Below, piece after piece: positions 8,472 through 40,423 of a DNA stretch of 44,515 bases. The stretch is from a virus. Position 1 is the first letter of the stretch; every line of letters begins with the position of its first letter. Both the position numbers and the translations under genes were made by a program. The stretch lies in UHGV virus genome UHGV-1858859; one strand, given 5' to 3'. The notes below the pieces were generated by a model. The model saw only the letters and a program-made list of their open reading frames with translations. It was not told where the DNA came from and searched no databases.

Positions 8472-8777
8472 TTATATTGTTGGTGTATGACTACTATAGT
8501 AGTTCGCTATTAGGTCGTCAACCTGTTTGAACGACCCGACGATAAAAACATTTGCACCACGTTTACGCATCCGCTCGTGCTCCCGTAGCTGGTGCGGGTC
8601 TGGCTTCGTGTTTTCGTCTTTCTTAACCTCGACAAACCAGACGATGCCGCCGGGGAGAATCACCAGCAGGTCGGGAGCGCCGGAACGTCCTTCGTAGGAA
8701 AGTTTACGAACGAGGCCGCCGAGGGCCTCGAATCGCTCTTTTGCATATTTCTGTATTTTGCCCTCAGGCGTACTCAT
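8472..8777 (-). CDS. VRR-NUC domain nuclease
   Basis: GAPDLLVILPGG ... VEVK pattern typical of VRR-NUC (PD-(D/E)XK fold). Confidence 0.65.
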   Translation of the reverse strand: MSTPEGKIQKYAKERFEALGGLVRKLSYEGRSGAPDLLVILPGGIVWFVEVKKDENTKPDPHQLREHERMRKRGANVFIVGSFKQVDDLIANYYSSHTPTI

Positions 8778-18521: not shown

Positions 18522-18892
18522 ACATAATTGCACCTATTGACATTATGAAAATCTTCGTTTAAGGTGCTTCTATATCTTAGTTACTTTGATTCCTGTTCAC
18601 CTTGTAAGAATGCTTAACCCGTGCGTTAAGCAAAGGGTTAAGCAGCAGGCTTACTGAACACGAGAATTATTGTAACTTTCCTTCCTAAGTATCTCCGGTT
18701 GCCCTGGGCAAGCTCTATTCTCATCGGCGGCATATCTCTTAAGTATCTGATTTTCTTAATGTGCCGTAGATTCGCAACCGTAAAAATGTAACGATTATTG
18801 GGCAGGCTTAGGGCCTGCCCTTTAGTTACCAAGTAATAAGAATAAAGGCACAACTCTACCTGAAGAATCACAACGGCAACGTAACTATTTTC

Positions 18893-18921
18893 TTGCACAC
18901 CCCAACATAATAGGATACTAT
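18893..18921 (+). promoter_or_regulatory. sigma70-like promoter TTGCAC-N17-TACTAT with embedded palindrome
   Basis: ttgcac accccaacataatagga tactat; motif ATAATAG-gata-CTATTCA at 18907-18924; a 36-bp block is repeated as an exact inverted copy at 40388-40423. Confidence 0.65.
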
Positions 18922-18946
18922 TCACTTATCGAAACGAGACAGATGA

Positions 18947-19147
18947 GTGAGGGTTATGTTTAAGAAGGGTCAGTTGGTGAAAACGATGTACGGTAGCTTA
19001 GGTATTATTGAAAAGAAATCGACAGTGTACCGAAGTTCTTATGTCGTTAGCTTACTCAGGGAGCACGGGTTAAGTTCCACGGCGTATTACCGAGAGTATG
19101 AAATGAAGCTCATCGGCAACAATTTTAAATTCAAAGGGGCGAAGTGA
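18947..19147 (+). CDS. hypothetical early protein
   Basis: First ORF downstream of the rightward promoter; start ambiguous (GTG 18947 or ATG 18956). Confidence 0.4.
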   Translation: MRVMFKKGQLVKTMYGSLGIIEKKSTVYRSSYVVSLLREHGLSSTAYYREYEMKLIGNNFKFKGAK

Positions 19148-29882: not shown

Positions 29883-29938
29883 CCCCATGAAGGTATGCCT
29901 ATCTCTGGCATCGACCAATCTTCATGGGGTTTTCTTAT
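29883..29938 (+). terminator. long stem-loop with T-run
   Basis: ccccatgaag ... cttcatgggg 10-bp arms with a 27-nt loop, followed by ttttcttat; encloses the ATG at 29895 used by the track. Confidence 0.4.
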
Positions 29939-29948
29939 AGGGTTTAAT

Positions 29949-30518
29949 ATGGGAATTGTTTTTGGTGTGGGTATTAACGATGTTTCACCAATAAGTTGCG
30001 GAGGGGTGCATATAGCGTCCTACGCCGTATGGAAGAACATGTTAAAGAGGTGCTACGACAAGAAATGGCAGCAAAGAAACAGAACTTATATAGGTTGCCG
30101 TGTGTCGGACGATTGGTTGGTGTCCAGTAATTTCAAGGTCTGGTCTGATGATTTTTATGTACCTGGGTGGCAGATAGATAAGGATTTACTTAACCCGGGA
30201 AATAAGGTTTACGATGCTTCTAACTGTGTTTTCATCCCTAAATCCCTCAATACTTTCCTAACAGCCCACGACGCTCTTCGAGGCGAACACCCACTCGGCG
30301 TACATTTCCATAAACAAAAGAAAAGATTCATCGCTCAAGTATCCGTGGATGGCGTATCTGAACAAATAGGCGCTTACGAAACCGCTCAAGAGGCACACGT
30401 AGCATGGTTTCATAGAAAAATTGAATTAGCATATGAATACAAAGGTCTTTGCGATAGCATAGACCCACGCCTTTTCGAAGGCGTCTTACGTAAGATTAAC
30501 TCAATGAAAGAGGTTTAG
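29949..30518 (+). CDS. HNH-family homing endonuclease with C-terminal AP2 domain
   Basis: N-terminal WKNMLKRCY ... WQIDKDLLNPGNKVYDASNCVFIP nuclease-like region; AP2-like HKQKKRFIAQVSVDGVSEQIGAYETAQEAHVAW. Start uncertain (ATG 29949 chosen). Confidence 0.55.
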   Translation: MGIVFGVGINDVSPISCGGVHIASYAVWKNMLKRCYDKKWQQRNRTYIGCRVSDDWLVSSNFKVWSDDFYVPGWQIDKDLLNPGNKVYDASNCVFIPKSLNTFLTAHDALRGEHPLGVHFHKQKKRFIAQVSVDGVSEQIGAYETAQEAHVAWFHRKIELAYEYKGLCDSIDPRLFEGVLRKINSMKEV

Positions 30519-30983: not shown

Positions 30984-31014
30984 AAGGCCCCATAATGGGG
31001 CCTTAGTTTTATTT
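30984..31014. terminator. bidirectional rho-independent terminator
   Basis: aaggcccc-ataat-ggggcctt hairpin with T-runs on both strands (agttttattt on plus, ttttatcatc on minus); lies between convergent genes. Confidence 0.6.
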
Positions 31015-31530
31015 AAATCGCGCAGGCATTAACACCATAAAGGCCGTGTTTGAAAATTGTATTTTGCATCCTCTGGTTTGGTCCTGGAAATCGAAACGAG
31101 CAATTTCATTTTTGTATGCCTTAGAAATCTTGTACGCGTCTGCCAAATAGCGCAGAGTGAACCCTATACTGTCGACAACACCCGGTGTGATGTGCGCCAC
31201 GCGTCTCCAGTCAGGAAAGTTTCCTTCTACAACATCTACCGGAAGTGTACATATAAGCGCACGATTATCGTCATAGAAAGATACACTGCCGTTGTCGTGG
31301 TTTACCTCTGCGTAGTTAAATTTAGAAGGCTCTCTCCCTTTGATGTCTATGAGAGTCCCTTTCTCAACGTTGGTCTTCACATTGTCGCAGAACAATCTAT
31401 GACCGTCCGTAGACACTATCAATCCTTCAGGGTCTATGTAAAAAGCGTTCAAATAGTAGCGAACATCATTTTTAGCCCTGCATATTTTCGCCCCTACATA
31501 CGCAGGGAAAGTAATTACTGTAGTAACCAT
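31009..31530 (-). CDS. truncated DnaN (DNA polymerase III beta sliding clamp)-like protein
   Basis: DVRYYLNAFYIDPEGLIVSTDGHRLF, VVEGNFPDWRRV and C-terminal AFMVLMPARF match E. coli DnaN segments (DVRYYLNGMLFE...ATDGHRLAV, VDGRFPDYRRV, AYVVMPMRL) recalled from memory; only 173 aa against 366; AGGAG RBS and own promoter. Confidence 0.6.
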   Translation of the reverse strand: MVTTVITFPAYVGAKICRAKNDVRYYLNAFYIDPEGLIVSTDGHRLFCDNVKTNVEKGTLIDIKGREPSKFNYAEVNHDNGSVSFYDDNRALICTLPVDVVEGNFPDWRRVAHITPGVVDSIGFTLRYLADAYKISKAYKNEIARFDFQDQTRGCKIQFSNTAFMVLMPARFK

Positions 31531-31556
31531 TTCTCATCTCCTGTTTAAGTTAACTG

Positions 31557-31585
31557 AATAGTACCCTATTATGTTGGTGCGCGCA
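31557..31585 (-). promoter_or_regulatory. sigma70-like promoter TTGCGC-N17-TACTAT with embedded palindrome
   Basis: Minus-strand reading ttgcgc gcaccaacataataggg tactat, with ATAATAG-ggta-CTATTCA. Confidence 0.6.
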
Positions 31586-31861
31586 AACTATTTATTTACG
31601 TATTCCAGTTATTCCACTCAATTGTAAACGTTGGAATAAACTATTCGAATAGTTGACTTTTCACTGAAAATATGATAAGCTCCACCTGAGCTTGTGAAGT
31701 ATGAGCAAGCGACCGCGGCGCGGGCAGGTAACGGAGCGGGACGTAAGTCCTGAGTGTAGTTACGCTGACGCGTTCGGAAGGGCCATACTCTATTGCTTGT
31801 GTAAAAAGTAACTGGTTTACTGAGATTACGCCGTTTCTATGTTTAAATGATAAGGACTAGC

Positions 31862-31888
31862 GCCCCGCTTTAAGGCGGGGCTTTACTT
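31862..31888 (+). terminator. stem-loop with short T-run just upstream of the Rz-like gene
   Basis: gccccgc-tttaag-gcggggc followed by tttactt; function unclear (terminator or attenuator-like). Confidence 0.35.
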
Positions 31889-31905
31889 ATTGAGAAAGGG
31901 GAAAC

Positions 31906-32292
31906 ATGAATCTTAAAGCAACTGTCGTAGCCGGAGCATGTTTCGTCGTCCTAGCCTACGCACACGGCATCTATCAATACCGCAGCGGCTGGGGTGAAGG
32001 CCGTGCTAATCTCGTTTCGCAGCAACAGCAGAAAGCACAGGCTGAGCTGACGAAGAAAACACAACGGCAGCAGCAGGATGAATCAAAGGCCGCCGCCGCT
32101 GACAACGAAGGCAAGACGAAATCAGAGGTGATTACCCGTGAAGTCGTTAAGTACATTAAAACGCCTGGCCGCAGCGTGTGCACTTTCGACGATGCTCGCG
32201 TCCTGCTCAAGTCCCACGCCGTTGCCAACGCCAATTCCATCCCCGGATACGACGATGATGCAGCCGCCGTGCAAACTGGCACCGCCAAGTAG
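31906..32292 (+). CDS. i-spanin (Rz-like)
   Basis: N-terminal transmembrane segment (ATVVAGACFVVLAYA), Gln/Lys-rich coiled-coil region, overlapping lipoprotein ORF in another frame; AAGGGGA RBS. Confidence 0.6.
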   Translation: MNLKATVVAGACFVVLAYAHGIYQYRSGWGEGRANLVSQQQQKAQAELTKKTQRQQQDESKAAAADNEGKTKSEVITREVVKYIKTPGRSVCTFDDARVLLKSHAVANANSIPGYDDDAAAVQTGTAK

Positions 32293-32401
32293 CGACGCTG
32301 ACGAGGATTTAGCTATCGACGTTCAGAACGCCGAATGTGTACGGCAACTGAGACTGAAAGTGTTCATGTTGCAGGATTACGTGAGGAATATTCTGGAATA
32401 G
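32138..32401 (+). CDS. o-spanin (Rz1-like lipoprotein), overlapping the i-spanin in another frame
   Basis: Lipoprotein signal with lipobox LASC, followed by Pro-rich mature region; begins inside the Rz-like gene and extends past its end. Confidence 0.6.
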   Translation: MKSLSTLKRLAAACALSTMLASCSSPTPLPTPIPSPDTTMMQPPCKLAPPSSDADEDLAIDVQNAECVRQLRLKVFMLQDYVRNILE

Positions 32402-32483
32402 TTGCCTTGTATGTTGGAATAATTTATTCTTGACATGTAAATCCGGGAGGCCCGGATTCCAACGTCCAGGGGACATACTGACT

Positions 32484-34995: not shown

Positions 34996-35175
34996 ATGGC
35001 AGATAATTACGTAATCCGCGAAAAGTACACCCACGTTGATATTGTTGACGGTCAGGTAATGCCGGTTCGCGGTGTTGTAGAAGCGGATGAACTGGTTGCG
35101 ACTCAACCGGACAACGAAGAAGCGCACAACAACGGCGGTGGTACTAAGCGTCGTCGCCGTAAGTCAGAGGAATAA
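34996..35175 (+). CDS. small acidic protein with basic C-terminus (59 aa)
   Basis: AAGGAAAGG RBS; ends KRRRRKSEE; below track cutoff. Confidence 0.35.
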   Translation: MADNYVIREKYTHVDIVDGQVMPVRGVVEADELVATQPDNEEAHNNGGGTKRRRRKSEE

Positions 35176-35178
35176 TTT

Positions 35179-35691
35179 ATGCCGCTAATCGTGGAAACTG
35201 GGGTGATCGTCCCAAATGCCGACAGTTACATTAGTCTGGCTGACGCCCGCGCGTTAGCGGCTAATTATGGCCTTGAGCTGCCGGAAGACGATACCGCAGC
35301 AGAGGTGGCCTTACGCAACGGTGCTACTTATGTAGGGCTTGCAGAACCGCAGATGTGCGGTCGTCGAGTATCCGCCGAACAGTCTCTTGCATACCCCCGC
35401 ACCGGCGTTACGTTAAACGGGTTCCCGGTGGCCAACAACGCCATTCCGAAACAGGTGATTCTTGCGCAGGTAATCGCTGCCGCTACATATGGCGAGGGCA
35501 CCGAAGTCCGGGCTAACTCAGACGGCCGCGCCGTGCAGACTGAGCGTGTCGAGGGTGCGGTAACAGTGACCTACTTCAACAATGGCAACAGTGGCGCTAC
35601 GACCGCGATTACCGCTGCTGACGACGCTTTACGCCCGTTATTGTGTGGTGGTCTTAACAATGGTTTCTCGTTTAACGTGTACCGGGGTTAA
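35179..35691 (+). CDS. head-tail connector/adaptor protein
   Basis: Position between head and neck genes; assignment by synteny. Confidence 0.4.
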   Translation: MPLIVETGVIVPNADSYISLADARALAANYGLELPEDDTAAEVALRNGATYVGLAEPQMCGRRVSAEQSLAYPRTGVTLNGFPVANNAIPKQVILAQVIAAATYGEGTEVRANSDGRAVQTERVEGAVTVTYFNNGNSGATTAITAADDALRPLLCGGLNNGFSFNVYRG

Positions 35692-37569: not shown

Positions 37570-38736
37570 ATGGCTACAACTCCTTTTAAGGGCGCGAATA
37601 CAGCGCAATTCTATGTGGCGGAAGTGACCCCGGGCGTAACCCCAGACAACCCTGTCTGGTCGCCGCTGCGCAATACGGGCGGTGTTCCTGCGGTAACCCG
37701 CGATGCGCTGACCTCCAACGAACTCGACGGCAGCCGAGAAACTACATCCATCCGAACCGGCAACAAACAGGTTAGCGGGGAGTACGCCATCGAACTTAGC
37801 TCCCGTAGCCAGGATGATTTCCTCGCGGGTGCTATGACTTCTACGTGGCAAGCTGGGGTAGAGATTACGGGTGCAGAAATTACGGTCGCTCCAGCAGGTA
37901 AAACATTCACCCGCGCTGCTGGTAGCTTCATTACTGACGGTGTAGAAGTTGGCGACCTGATTGCGTTCACCGGCTTAACCAGCGACAACGCAAAACCGTT
38001 TATCGTGACCGAGGTTTCTGCTCTTGTAGTTACGGGTTCTGGCATTCAACACACGCTGACAGCAGAGACTGTAACCACCGGCGCTAAAACAGGCGATAAA
38101 TTGGAAACCGGTAACGCATGTAAGACGTTCTCCATCCTGACATGGTTCAAAGGACAGTGCGGGAACCCTGACGCGTACATGCTGACCAAAGGCGTGGAAA
38201 TCTCCGGTTTCACCATTGAACAGGCCGTAAACGCGATGGTGACAGGCAGCTTCCCGTTCATCGGTCTGAGTCAGGAAATTCTTTCTGCACGGCCAGCAGG
38301 TTCTGATTTCTCTCAGGTGACGTTTACCGATGAGCCGTTCTCATCCGTAGATGTGTCTGTGTTCGACGGTTCTACGCCGTTGCGTTGCGATACTCTGACC
38401 ATCACCAACGACAACGGTGCTTCCGCACAGTTCGAACTCGGCAACAGTAGTGTTGCGTTCGTGGAACGTGGCCGCGCAGCTAACACATTCTCCATCTCTG
38501 GTAAGCTGTACGACATGGCGATGATTCAGAAGTTTATCAACGAACAGCAGGTAGAGATTAACTCTATTCTGGCGGGGGTAAACGGGGCTATGTCTTTCAG
38601 CCTGAAACGTGCCGAGTTGACCGCAGTTACGCCAGAAATATCTGGCCCAGAATCAATCACCCAGAGCATAGAGGGACAGTCCACCGGCAATCAGTACCAG
38701 TCATCTATCGTAATTCAACGTATCACCTACGCATAA
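37570..38736 (+). CDS. major tail protein
   Basis: 388 aa, Thr/Gly/Val-rich, followed by a strong terminator and located before the chaperone and tape measure genes. Confidence 0.6.
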   Translation: MATTPFKGANTAQFYVAEVTPGVTPDNPVWSPLRNTGGVPAVTRDALTSNELDGSRETTSIRTGNKQVSGEYAIELSSRSQDDFLAGAMTSTWQAGVEITGAEITVAPAGKTFTRAAGSFITDGVEVGDLIAFTGLTSDNAKPFIVTEVSALVVTGSGIQHTLTAETVTTGAKTGDKLETGNACKTFSILTWFKGQCGNPDAYMLTKGVEISGFTIEQAVNAMVTGSFPFIGLSQEILSARPAGSDFSQVTFTDEPFSSVDVSVFDGSTPLRCDTLTITNDNGASAQFELGNSSVAFVERGRAANTFSISGKLYDMAMIQKFINEQQVEINSILAGVNGAMSFSLKRAELTAVTPEISGPESITQSIEGQSTGNQYQSSIVIQRITYA

Positions 38737-40353: not shown

Positions 40354-40394
40354 GGGGTAGCTCCTGTTTGAGTTAACATTGTTGGTGTAAGTGA

Positions 40395-40423
40395 ATAGTA
40401 TCCTATTATGTTGGGGTGTGCAA
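40395..40423 (-). promoter_or_regulatory. sigma70-like promoter TTGCAC-N17-TACTAT, exact inverted copy of the 18893 promoter block
   Basis: Minus-strand reading cttgcacaccccaacataataggatactattcactt is identical over 36 nt to plus strand 18892-18927. Confidence 0.65.

Follow-up and report, generated by a model that had tools for sequence, protein, structure and literature searches.

What occupies the 375-base-pair (bp) gap between a minus-strand moron open reading frame (ORF) and the plus-strand i-spanin gene in the virus genome UHGV-1858859? This genome, all 44,515 nucleotides (nt) of which are called the window below, is essentially complete and represents a Kagunavirus-like siphophage of the subfamily Guernseyvirinae; 701 bases at the locus are 98.9% identical to Escherichia phage vB_VIPECOTPH05A and 97 to 98% identical to phages Snoke, Ivi, and fEg-Eco19. 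A sequence-only reading had treated positions 31590-31905 as a palindrome-rich spacer. The word does not fit, since two thirds of the region is made up of a promoter and a structured RNA: an extended −10 promoter abutting the palindrome and a covariation-supported RNA at 31688-31890 had been overlooked. We propose, at a probability of roughly 60%, that positions 31601-31905 constitute one conserved Guernseyvirinae expression cassette consisting of an operator array, an extended −10 promoter, and a cis-acting leader RNA.

The module and its relatives

Relatives of the locus came from three sources: a spanin-protein search of IMG/VR that yielded 48 loci without use of the motif in their selection; pattern scans of IMG/VR, metagenomes, and GTDB genomes; and a phage collection. 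Loci carry L numbers where they must be told apart (L052 is Snoke, MK931441.1; L050 is horsemountain, MT074482.1; L112 is ERZ1026892.157; L144 is the HK022 genome).

The conserved unit is a module of 305 bp, 31601-31905, which begins exactly at a TATTCC hexamer and continues through to the spanin ATG. In phages without a divergent upstream gene, it abuts the terminator that ends the Hoc-like decoration gene. Kaguna-type modules were found in ∼179 phage records over at least 80% of the length, mostly at 95 to 99% identity, and Jersey-type modules in ∼268 records over at least 80% of the length; Cornellvirus FSL SP-031 and its metagenomic relatives carry more divergent versions. Mean pairwise identity among 35 Kaguna-type loci reached 95.3% over the module, compared to 89.6% in the i-spanin gene and 83.2% in the 900 bp that follow; in 87% of pairs, the module was more conserved than the i-spanin gene. 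The extreme case is L037, where the spanin is 69% and the module 99.5% identical. Conservation inside the module is lowest in the spacers between half-sites and in the spacer between the −35 and −10 elements, as expected for an operator and a promoter.

The sole match in 185,579 reference genomes was L141 (NZ_JACVEL010000048.1), a 738-nt contig in the Bacteroidota assembly of Taishania pollutisoli. It is most likely phage contamination of that assembly, since the sequence falls within a 93%-identity cluster of Jersey-type sequences.

A conserved extended −10 promoter

The promoter at 31653-31681 is of the sigma-70 extended −10 type and lies on the plus strand. It consists of a −35 hexamer TTGACT (31653-31658), a 17-bp spacer, TG at 31673-31674, and a −10 hexamer TAAGCT at 31676-31681, an arrangement that would place the transcription start near 31688, about 7 nt past the −10. 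The −35 hexamer is identical in 37 of 38 Kaguna-type loci and satisfies a criterion of near-TTGACA with a spacer of 16 to 18 bp; it reads TAGACT or TTGACT in Jersey-type and TGGACT, TGGATT, or TTGATT in Cornell-type loci. TG and TAAGCT are invariant in all 38 Kaguna-type loci. The whole promoter takes the form TAGACT...TGnTACGCT in Jersey and TGGAYT...TGaTAMCCT in Cornell versions, and across the 47 loci selected without reference to the motif, together with the Cornell variants, the TG, the TA, and the final T of TG(a/c/g/t)TA(A/C)nCT never change, while the n of TGn takes all four bases in the 47. Invariant TG and −10 bases combined with a variable n and spacer are the mark of a functional extended −10 promoter.

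The window contains three matches to TTGAC-N17-19-TAAGNT (0.27 expected), one of which is the early promoter at 18537. The GenBank record of fBC-Eco01 places a "Host promoter1" on exactly the same 29-mer. The "Host promoter2" of that record, which corresponds to ∼31814-31842 in the tail of the RNA, was rejected: by inspection of the Kaguna/Jersey alignment, it contains no conserved −10 with A-11 and T-7.

A structured RNA supported by covariation

Beyond the predicted start, the sequence becomes GC-rich, and ∼200 nt of plus-strand RNA (∼31688-31890) are structured, the last hairpin lying at 31862-31881. The 5′-terminal hairpin P0 (31690-31694/31706-31710) begins at +2. It is followed by an outer helix with a bulge, P1 (31713-31715 and 31717-31722/31769-31777), which encloses P2 (31725-31732/31759-31763 and 31765-31767), the 2-bp P2b (31736-31737/31754-31755), and P3 (31738-31742/31747-31751), the last closed by a GUAA loop. 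A single-stranded AAGGG (31778-31782) within CGGAAGGG (31775-31782) follows P1.

Single-sequence minimum free energy (MFE) folds of Kaguna, L026-type, Jersey, Cornell-1, and Cornell-2 sequences gave the same P0-P1-P2-P2b-P3 architecture with differing helix sequences. P0 is GCTTG/CAAGC, ACGCT/AGCGT, or CGTTC/GAACG, followed by one to two unpaired bases; P1 in the Kaguna and Jersey types is CCG[C]GGYGCG/CGCRTTCGG; P2 is CAGGTAAC/GTTACgCTG, CGCG/CGCG, CCCG/CGGG, or CGTAAC/GTTACG; and P3 is GGGAC/GTCCT, GGTGC/GCACT, GGGCG/CGCCC, GTGCC/GGCAC, or GCC/GGC. A covariance model, R1, was built from 14 Kaguna-type sequences. It found the Jersey-type RNAs at E values of about 1e-7 to 1e-8 and Cornell-2 marginally (E = 0.73); for Cornell-1, the argument for homology is confined to synteny, the promoter and operator, and the single-sequence fold.

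In the resulting alignment A3 of 36 distinct sequences, 97.4% of the cells at paired columns can pair, compared to 25 to 42% when the partners are slid by 1 to 3 columns. Two-sided, compensatory changes occur in 17 of 29 pairs, and one P1 pair is C-G, U-A, and A-U in independent lineages. The covariation score was 0.286, against no more than 0.047 for the slid controls and 0.104 for shuffles, and none of 500 shuffles reached 0.286. From a plain MAFFT alignment of Kaguna and Jersey sequences, RNAalifold retrieved no more than P1, a portion of P3, and the terminal hairpin; on the Cornell group it returned a meaningless consensus because helices of differing sequence and length were misaligned, and the covariance-model alignment was used instead. 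The plus strand folds at −71.5 kcal/mol (z = −2.05) and the minus strand at −51.5 kcal/mol. Because of this 20-kcal/mol asymmetry and the frequent G-U pairs, the RNA was assigned to the plus strand.

These data bear on the view that control is exerted on the DNA alone, by operators for a late regulator, and that the RNA structure is incidental. Such a view would accommodate the conservation of the half-site arrays, their recurrence ahead of the scaffold gene, and a locus (L112) that has an array without the RNA. It does not account for compensatory changes in 17 of 29 pairs across lineages, for the strand asymmetry, for conservation that reaches 230 bp past the operators, or for a paralogous RNA that lacks the array, and we regard it as very improbable.

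The RNA matches no catalogued family. Against Rfam 15, no part of the window gave a match at the gathering threshold; at E ≤ 10 nothing in the region qualified either, the best scores for 31500-32000 being 13.6 to 19.5 bits, compared to gathering thresholds of 35 to 70. ARAGORN found no tRNA or tmRNA. The horsemountain record has a "tRNA-Ser" at 535-612 on the opposite strand, covering the last part of the Hoc-like gene together with the terminator of that gene, and the same label lies under the SGP009 match; this tRNA is probably a false positive, as ARAGORN called none in six related loci (four Jersey-type and two Kaguna-type). Resemblances to a signal recognition particle 4.5S-like GGAA tetraloop, boxA, a DnaA box, and IHF and TyrR sites did not fit on inspection and were unsupported by Rfam.

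Small ORFs over the RNA

Genome records annotate hypothetical proteins on this RNA: 36 amino acids (aa) in Snoke, 38 aa in fBC-Eco01, and 63 aa (gp08) in Jersey, the last of which matches phrog_14923. A small protein-coding gene, as in these annotations, has the comparison of relatives against it. Indels of 1 nt frameshift the 36-aa ORF in L003, L006, L011, and L023; start, frame, and length of the ORF change from genus to genus; and in the Cornell-type loci L084 and L094, no ORF reaches 20 aa. Codon 30 encodes L, V, G, P, or F, and the 36-aa peptide matches no PHROG. Seemingly synonymous changes are accounted for by base-pair covariation; GCG to GCA, for example, is one side of a covarying P1 pair. 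The comparison thus argues against coding by the small ORFs, a protein-coding gene here is scarcely credible, and PHROG family 14923 appears to have been built on the RNA cassette. Mini-ORFs of 3 to 8 codons in the tail and a TTG-initiated mini-ORF after GGAAGGG were likewise set aside by inspection; none is conserved from genus to genus or preceded by a Shine-Dalgarno sequence.

Tail and terminal hairpin

The single-stranded segment leads into an AU-rich and mostly unpaired tail (31783-31861) that is conserved in sequence, for example, in TTACGCCGTTTCTATGTTTAAATGATAAGG. Column conservation in the tail is 0.96 to 0.996 among the 35 Kaguna-type loci. The motif GATT(A)CGCCGT is common to the Jersey-type RNA, and its variant GATTTGCCGT occurs in a paralogous copy of the RNA described below (copy B). 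RNAalifold predicted no consensus structure in the tail of the Kaguna and Jersey sequences.

The GC hairpin with a T-run that the sequence-only reading had reported was recovered by a terminator scan at 31862-31881, followed by TTTACTTATT. Its 8-bp stem (31862-31869/31874-31881) has seven GC pairs, the tract UUUACUUAUU extends to 31891, and the hairpin ends 25 nt before the i-spanin ATG. Compensatory changes (C-G to G-C, C-G to U-A, and G-C to A-U) support the stem, and it is kept 25 to 28 nt before the spanin start codon in all three genera. In the Kaguna type, UUUACUUAUU passes a five-of-eight U-tract criterion, which makes the hairpin terminator-like, and ARNold calls it a terminator in the fBC-Eco01 record. 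The U tract fails this criterion in Jersey (UUAGCGUAU), Cornell (UGUUACGAU), and the copy B of metagenomic contig L135 (ACUGCGUUG), where read-through is therefore expected. As a terminator, the hairpin is thus leaky at best, and its conservation may reflect some other role.

Two alternatives turn on this end of the RNA. The first, the chief rival to a cis-acting leader, is a stand-alone, trans-acting small RNA (sRNA) of ∼200 nt that ends at 31862-31881 and whose tail or CGGAAGGG pairs with or sequesters a host or phage target, the downstream genes being served by other promoters. The terminator-like hairpin of the Kaguna type, the 96 to 99.6% conservation of an unstructured AU-rich tail, and the swapping of the module independently of the spanin allele in L037 all speak for it, and there is a precedent in StxS, an sRNA derived from the leader of a lambdoid PR′ transcript. 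It is harder to reconcile with the lack of a U tract after the hairpin in Jersey, Cornell, and the L135 copy B, with the short UUU run, which would make a poor Hfq-type 3′ end, and with the position of copy B at an annotated early-gene promoter, where the RNA is most simply a leader. In a search restricted to phage targets (RNAduplex, tail against the whole window), no target stood above background, the best z score besides the tail's own antisense being about −3.9. We consider an sRNA of this kind possible and on balance doubtful.

The second is a riboswitch-like attenuator in which 31735-31751 (P2b/P3) pairs with 31853-31869 and thereby sequesters the 5′ arm of the terminator, so that a factor opening the 5′ domain would switch on spanin and late transcription. 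The two 17-nt arms are 82% complementary, and the duplex free energy of −27.6 kcal/mol is well below that of shuffled tails (−15.2 ± 2.7 kcal/mol; none of 500 shuffles was as good). The alternative fold is, however, 7.7 kcal/mol worse than the MFE, with negligible ensemble probability. Moreover, P3 changes in L006 and L026 (G38 also in L023, L024, and L001) are uncompensated in the distal arm, and the whole-domain duplex is not significant in L006, L023, Jersey, or Cornell (z of −0.9 to +1.2). The pairing is thus notable in the window, energetically inferior, and not conserved; we did not adopt it and hold such an attenuator to be improbable.

A second copy in the early region

Model R1 also found a paralogous copy of the RNA, copy B, at 37717-37821 of Snoke (E = 1e-11) and in contig L135. 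The regions that hold a promoter and structured RNA of this kind are Snoke 37680-38040, L135 660-1040, and L109 2140-2332 (minus strand). Copy B lies in the divergent early region, has the same TTGACT-17-TAAGCT promoter without the TATTCC array, and is followed by a GC hairpin and, ∼220 nt past the modelled domain, by the first early gene. It heads the early operon in ∼25 phage (Kagunavirus) records, and it occupies the place at which a sigma-70-like promoter is annotated before the first early genes in the Jersey record. Should this be the early promoter, transcription through copy B must continue into the genes. In L109, early-type small ORFs take the place of spanins after an array, the promoter, and a B-type RNA. 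The window itself yielded no copy B in a model search with the filter off. From these comparisons, the RNA domain is a modular, promoter-proximal leader element apparently able to head different operons. On the strand opposite copy B, and across it, Snoke has an annotated 35-aa "hypothetical protein," CPT_Snoke_056.

The window carries a rightward early promoter of the same type, TTGACA-17-TAAGGT, at 18537-18565 on the plus strand, 390 nt before the first early gene. Its leader (18566-18956) is untranslated and structured over ∼390 nt, contains a terminator-like GC hairpin at 18800-18820 (following tract, UUUAGUUA/TTTAGTTACC), and ends at the ATG of the first early gene at 18957. The 3′ 100 nt are common to the copy-B leaders of Snoke and L135, and the 5′ part is unrelated to them.

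The palindrome and the operator array

The feature that first drew attention to the locus, a perfect 14-bp palindrome ACTATTCGAATAGT, is present at 31640-31653. It extends to a perfect 16-bp palindrome, AACTATTCGAATAGTT, at 31639-31654 (arms AACTATTC/GAATAGTT), which is centred at −41.5 and covers the first two −35 bases. Its occurrence is no more than chance predicts, since first-order Markov simulations lead one to expect 3.25 ± 1.7 perfect 14-mers and the window holds three. Nor is it the conserved unit. The palindrome is found only in the Kaguna type, whose right arm GAATAG is AAAAAG in all nine Jersey-type loci and in SP-031 and CAAAAG in other Cornell variants; the A-tract of Jersey and SP-031 resembles the proximal subsite of an UP element. 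The symmetry is thus lineage specific because the Kaguna GAATAG replaces the Jersey AAAAAG, and the conserved unit is shifted 6 to 7 bp to the left.

What is conserved is a pair of elements, TATTCC-N3-TATTCC and GGAATA-N3-TATTC. The distal direct repeat TATTCC-AGT-TATTCC (31601-31615, −87 to −73) is exact in 34 to 36 of the 38 Kaguna-type and all nine Jersey-type loci selected by spanin and is also found in the Cornell type. The proximal inverted repeat GGAATA-AAC-TATTC(G) (31633-31647, centred at about −48) becomes GGAATA-CTT-TATTC in Jersey, GGAATA-AAT-TATTC in SP-031, and a perfect GGAATA-AAT-TATTCC in several Cornell variants, and we take it to be the conserved proximal operator. The inverted repeats TTATTCCA/TGGAATAA described earlier both exist; the second was correctly placed at 31632-31639, and the first arm lies at 31609-31616, one base from its reported position. 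Relative to a start at 31688, the half-sites fall at −87/−82, −78/−73, −55/−50, and −46/−42, and TATTC/GAATA elements span −87 to −36 of the conserved promoter. The −35-like hexamer follows 7 bp past the inverted repeat, an arrangement that is invariant across the three genera.

Clustering, more than abundance, marks the array. GAATAG (25 copies, 18.4 expected) and TATTCC (26 copies, 19.2 expected) are mildly enriched genome-wide, and three copies of TATTCC lie within 31601-31638 and three within 32385-32421. The exact repeat GGAATANNNTATTC occurs in the window only at 31633 and 32416, and eight matches with at most one mismatch compare to 0.62 expected. One of the one-mismatch repeats, GGAATAATTTATGC (35169-35182), overlaps the start codon (35179) of the head-to-tail connector gene.

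The recurrence of GGAATA/TATTC elements ahead of the scaffold gene, which the sequence-only reading had pointed out, was borne out at 32385-32429. This second operator region (32385-32458, plus strand) has GGAATA at 32385, 32395, and 32416, the repeat GGAATA-ATT-TATTC at 32416-32429, TTGACA at 32430-32435, and a hairpin AATCCGGG/CCCGGATT at 32440-32458 whose flanks covary. The window, Jersey, and FSL SP-031, and hence all three genera, keep it ahead of the scaffold gene, and, as judged from the sequences, this conserved second site supports a shared regulator for the structural-gene region. The longest scaffold ORF begins at a TTG at 32430, the start used in the Snoke annotation; the Jersey gene starts at the ATG equivalent to 32484. 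Since 32430-32483 is conserved at the nucleotide level across the three genera and holds the hairpin with covarying flanks, the TTG start is probably a misannotation.

Repeated half-sites in both orientations with A/T-rich spacers could also be iterons, and an origin or a packaging (pac) site had been suggested. The array, however, stands in a fixed register to the promoter in all lineages, and the terminase and replication genes are at least 6 kb away. Cumulative GC skew has its minimum at ∼18 kb and rises monotonically without an inflection at 31.6 kb. An origin or pac site at this position is therefore most unlikely.

The 22-bp motif

The palindrome had also been read as a relative of a promoter motif built from the same half-sites. 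This 22-bp motif, GAATAGTAYCCTATTATGTTGG, has four copies in the window (18902-18923, minus strand; 31556-31577, 32396-32417, and 40393-40414, plus strand) against 0.01 expected. A scan with GAATAGTNNCCTNNTATGTTGG at up to three mismatches returned four copies, none of them at 31640-31653, so the palindrome does not belong to the family. The copy at 31556-31577 is a true member, 60 bp upstream of the palindrome. It is confined to phages with the divergent moron gene upstream and is absent ahead of the module in L014, L023 to L025, and the Jersey-type loci. Copies stand where the late and tail operons begin; the one in the early region is on the opposite strand and precedes the first early gene by 35 nt. 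The motif is quasi-palindromic and has a −10-like hexamer in either orientation; it may be a late promoter that includes an activator site, or it may be an operator.

In fBC-Eco01 (Kagunavirus), PHIRE reports the same consensus, tgAATAGTa-ccTATTat-T, as a promoter for a "phage-encoded RNA polymerase" (PMC9825357). The label is doubtful, since the Snoke annotation lists no phage RNA polymerase (RNAP). This motif and the palindrome have the hexamers GAATAG/CTATT in common, but the half-sites point inward across a 4- to 6-bp spacer in the motif and outward, abutting, in the palindrome. A protein-binding, regulatory role of the TATTC/GAATA elements is plausible from their promoter register and the second copy at the scaffold gene; the further suggestion, that they serve the same regulator as the 22-bp motif, is unproven, spacing and orientation being different.

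Surrounding genes

The divergent moron ORF upstream of the module (31009-31530, minus strand) encodes 173 aa. Its labels conflict among records, which call it a "DNA polymerase III sliding clamp" or beta-clamp-like protein or a "RusA-like Holliday junction resolvase"; its matches in PHROGs include a processivity-factor family (3.7e-9) besides phrog_3007, which carries the RusA-like label (3.6e-36). Phages that are otherwise near-identical have different genes at this position. On the other side, a Shine-Dalgarno sequence AAGGGG (31896-31901) precedes the i-spanin gene (31906-32292), the first gene 3′ of the RNA. The o-spanin gene (32138-32401) is embedded in it, all of these lie on the plus strand, and the scaffold and major capsid genes come next.

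Farther upstream, between the head-morphogenesis and Hoc-like genes, the window has an additional 207-aa ORF on the plus strand (29895-30518). Snoke has at this place an intein within the morphogenesis gene, and the ORF may be a free-standing insertion of the homing-endonuclease type.

Discussion

The anatomy described here, that is, the elements, their conservation, the strand and fold of the RNA, and its noncoding status, is held with high confidence on the strength of sequence comparison. The cis-leader mechanism is held with moderate confidence; from the same comparisons we infer where transcription starts and ends, that a protein binds, and that the RNA acts in cis. In the mechanism that we propose, a DNA-binding protein, for which close relatives offer Cro-like, HTH_17, and NinH-like candidates, would bind the array between −87 and −42 and time the promoter, with the palindrome at −41.5 as a lineage-specific addition to the array in the Kaguna type. 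Host RNAP would start near 31688 at an extended −10 promoter that matches the early promoter in type and would produce, in order, the 5′ hairpin, the P1-P2-P2b-P3 stack, the single-stranded CGGAAGGG, the AU-rich tail, and the GC hairpin before the spanin ribosome-binding site. The RNA would act mainly in cis, as the leader of a transcript that continues into the spanin and possibly the scaffold and capsid genes. It may set the passage of RNAP or the fate of the mRNA beyond the hairpin by stabilizing the 5′ end through its structure, by modifying the polymerase in the manner of put RNA, or by both; a further candidate action is the shielding of a long untranslated leader from Rho.

Several observations weigh against this proposal. 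The −10 hexamer fits the consensus at only three of six positions, and a strict promoter scan misses the promoter. The covariation alignment was fitted to the model and is biased toward the structure to that extent, and a further model, R2, fails to detect the Cornell-1 variant. The near invariance of the tail is what an sRNA seed would show, and the Kaguna-type hairpin, by its U tract, could end the transcript. For the protein that would bind the array, there are candidates only. In L112, a TATTCC/GGAATA array at 8521-8566 is found without promoter or RNA and is followed by unrelated DNA, so that the array may act independently; it could be a recombination scar or an array with a function of its own. 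On one side it has a membrane-protein moron on the minus strand and on the other a terminator, behind which lies an HTH-phosphoesterase ORF. Lastly, in the literature on Guernseyvirinae we found no report of an operator array, an RNA or noncoding RNA, or a map of transcripts or transcription start sites against which the start, the 3′ end, and read-through might be compared.

Leaders of known systems offer partial parallels to the proposed cassette. The leader of E. coli ompA stabilizes its mRNA by a 5′-terminal hairpin, a single-stranded AU-rich segment, and a hairpin by the ribosome-binding site, and the RNA described here likewise has a 5′ hairpin at +1/+2, an AU-rich linker, and, in three genera, a hairpin 25 to 28 nt before the start codon. 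It differs in having an extra 65-nt P1-P3 domain and a strongly conserved linker that this parallel leaves unexplained. The Kaguna-type locus also resembles the lambdoid PR′-6S-tR′ region in its succession of a sigma-70 promoter, ∼200 nt of untranslated RNA, a terminator-like hairpin, and then lysis and head genes. Unlike in that region, the protein sites are upstream of the −35 rather than between the −35 and −10, and the Snoke annotation has no Q-family gene. To our knowledge, the lambda 6S leader is not known for a conserved fold such as this RNA has.

The put sites of HK022, putL and putR, are cis-acting antiterminator RNAs of roughly 70 nt with two stem-loops in a V shape (PMC9378689). 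Several features of the cassette recall them: a structured RNA close to the promoter that begins a few bases at most from +1, a build of two bulged stem-loops (P0 and P1-P3), two paralogous copies on two operons (copy A late and copy B early), and hairpins or terminators downstream. The full Snoke annotation lists no N- or Q-like protein and no phage RNAP, the window's own proteins not having been scanned individually. The cassette also differs from put. There is no homology, as R2 gave no match at E ≤ 10 in the whole HK022 genome; the domain is ∼90 nt rather than ∼70 nt and has another shape; the phage is a virulent siphophage rather than lambdoid; and several lineages have no real terminator. 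Protein-independent read-through via the beta′ zinc-binding domain is a feature of put, and the likeness here is one of anatomy alone. By this analogy, P0 and P1-P3 could represent a new put-like, protein-independent class of cis-acting RNA that modifies E. coli or Salmonella RNAP or blocks Rho, an idea that we consider unlikely. Were it true, a virulent siphophage subfamily would drive its operons through hairpins and terminators without an N- or Q-type protein, and the TATTCC/GGAATA array would be the temporal switch for the copy in the structural-gene region. If the RNA acts on RNAP, RNA-only antitermination would extend beyond the lambdoid phages.

Of all this, the 22-bp motif is already published, and the promoter and hairpin are already auto-predicted in one GenBank record, that of fBC-Eco01. 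New is the larger feature, which would be a structured leader or sRNA family with a regulated promoter of its own and in which the palindrome is a minor, lineage-specific detail. Members of the Guernseyvirinae (the Jersey-, K1G-, and SP-031-like phages) rank among those most frequently recovered for use in therapy and biocontrol against Salmonella and E. coli, and their gene regulation is essentially unstudied. The module is present in roughly 450 or more deposited phage genomes, where the region is currently blank or annotated "hypothetical protein." Recognizing the cassette corrects these annotations, offers a candidate new Rfam family, and, through two operator sites and a modular leader found at both early and late operons, gives a handle on how these phages, apparently without N, Q, or an RNAP of their own, time early and late expression.

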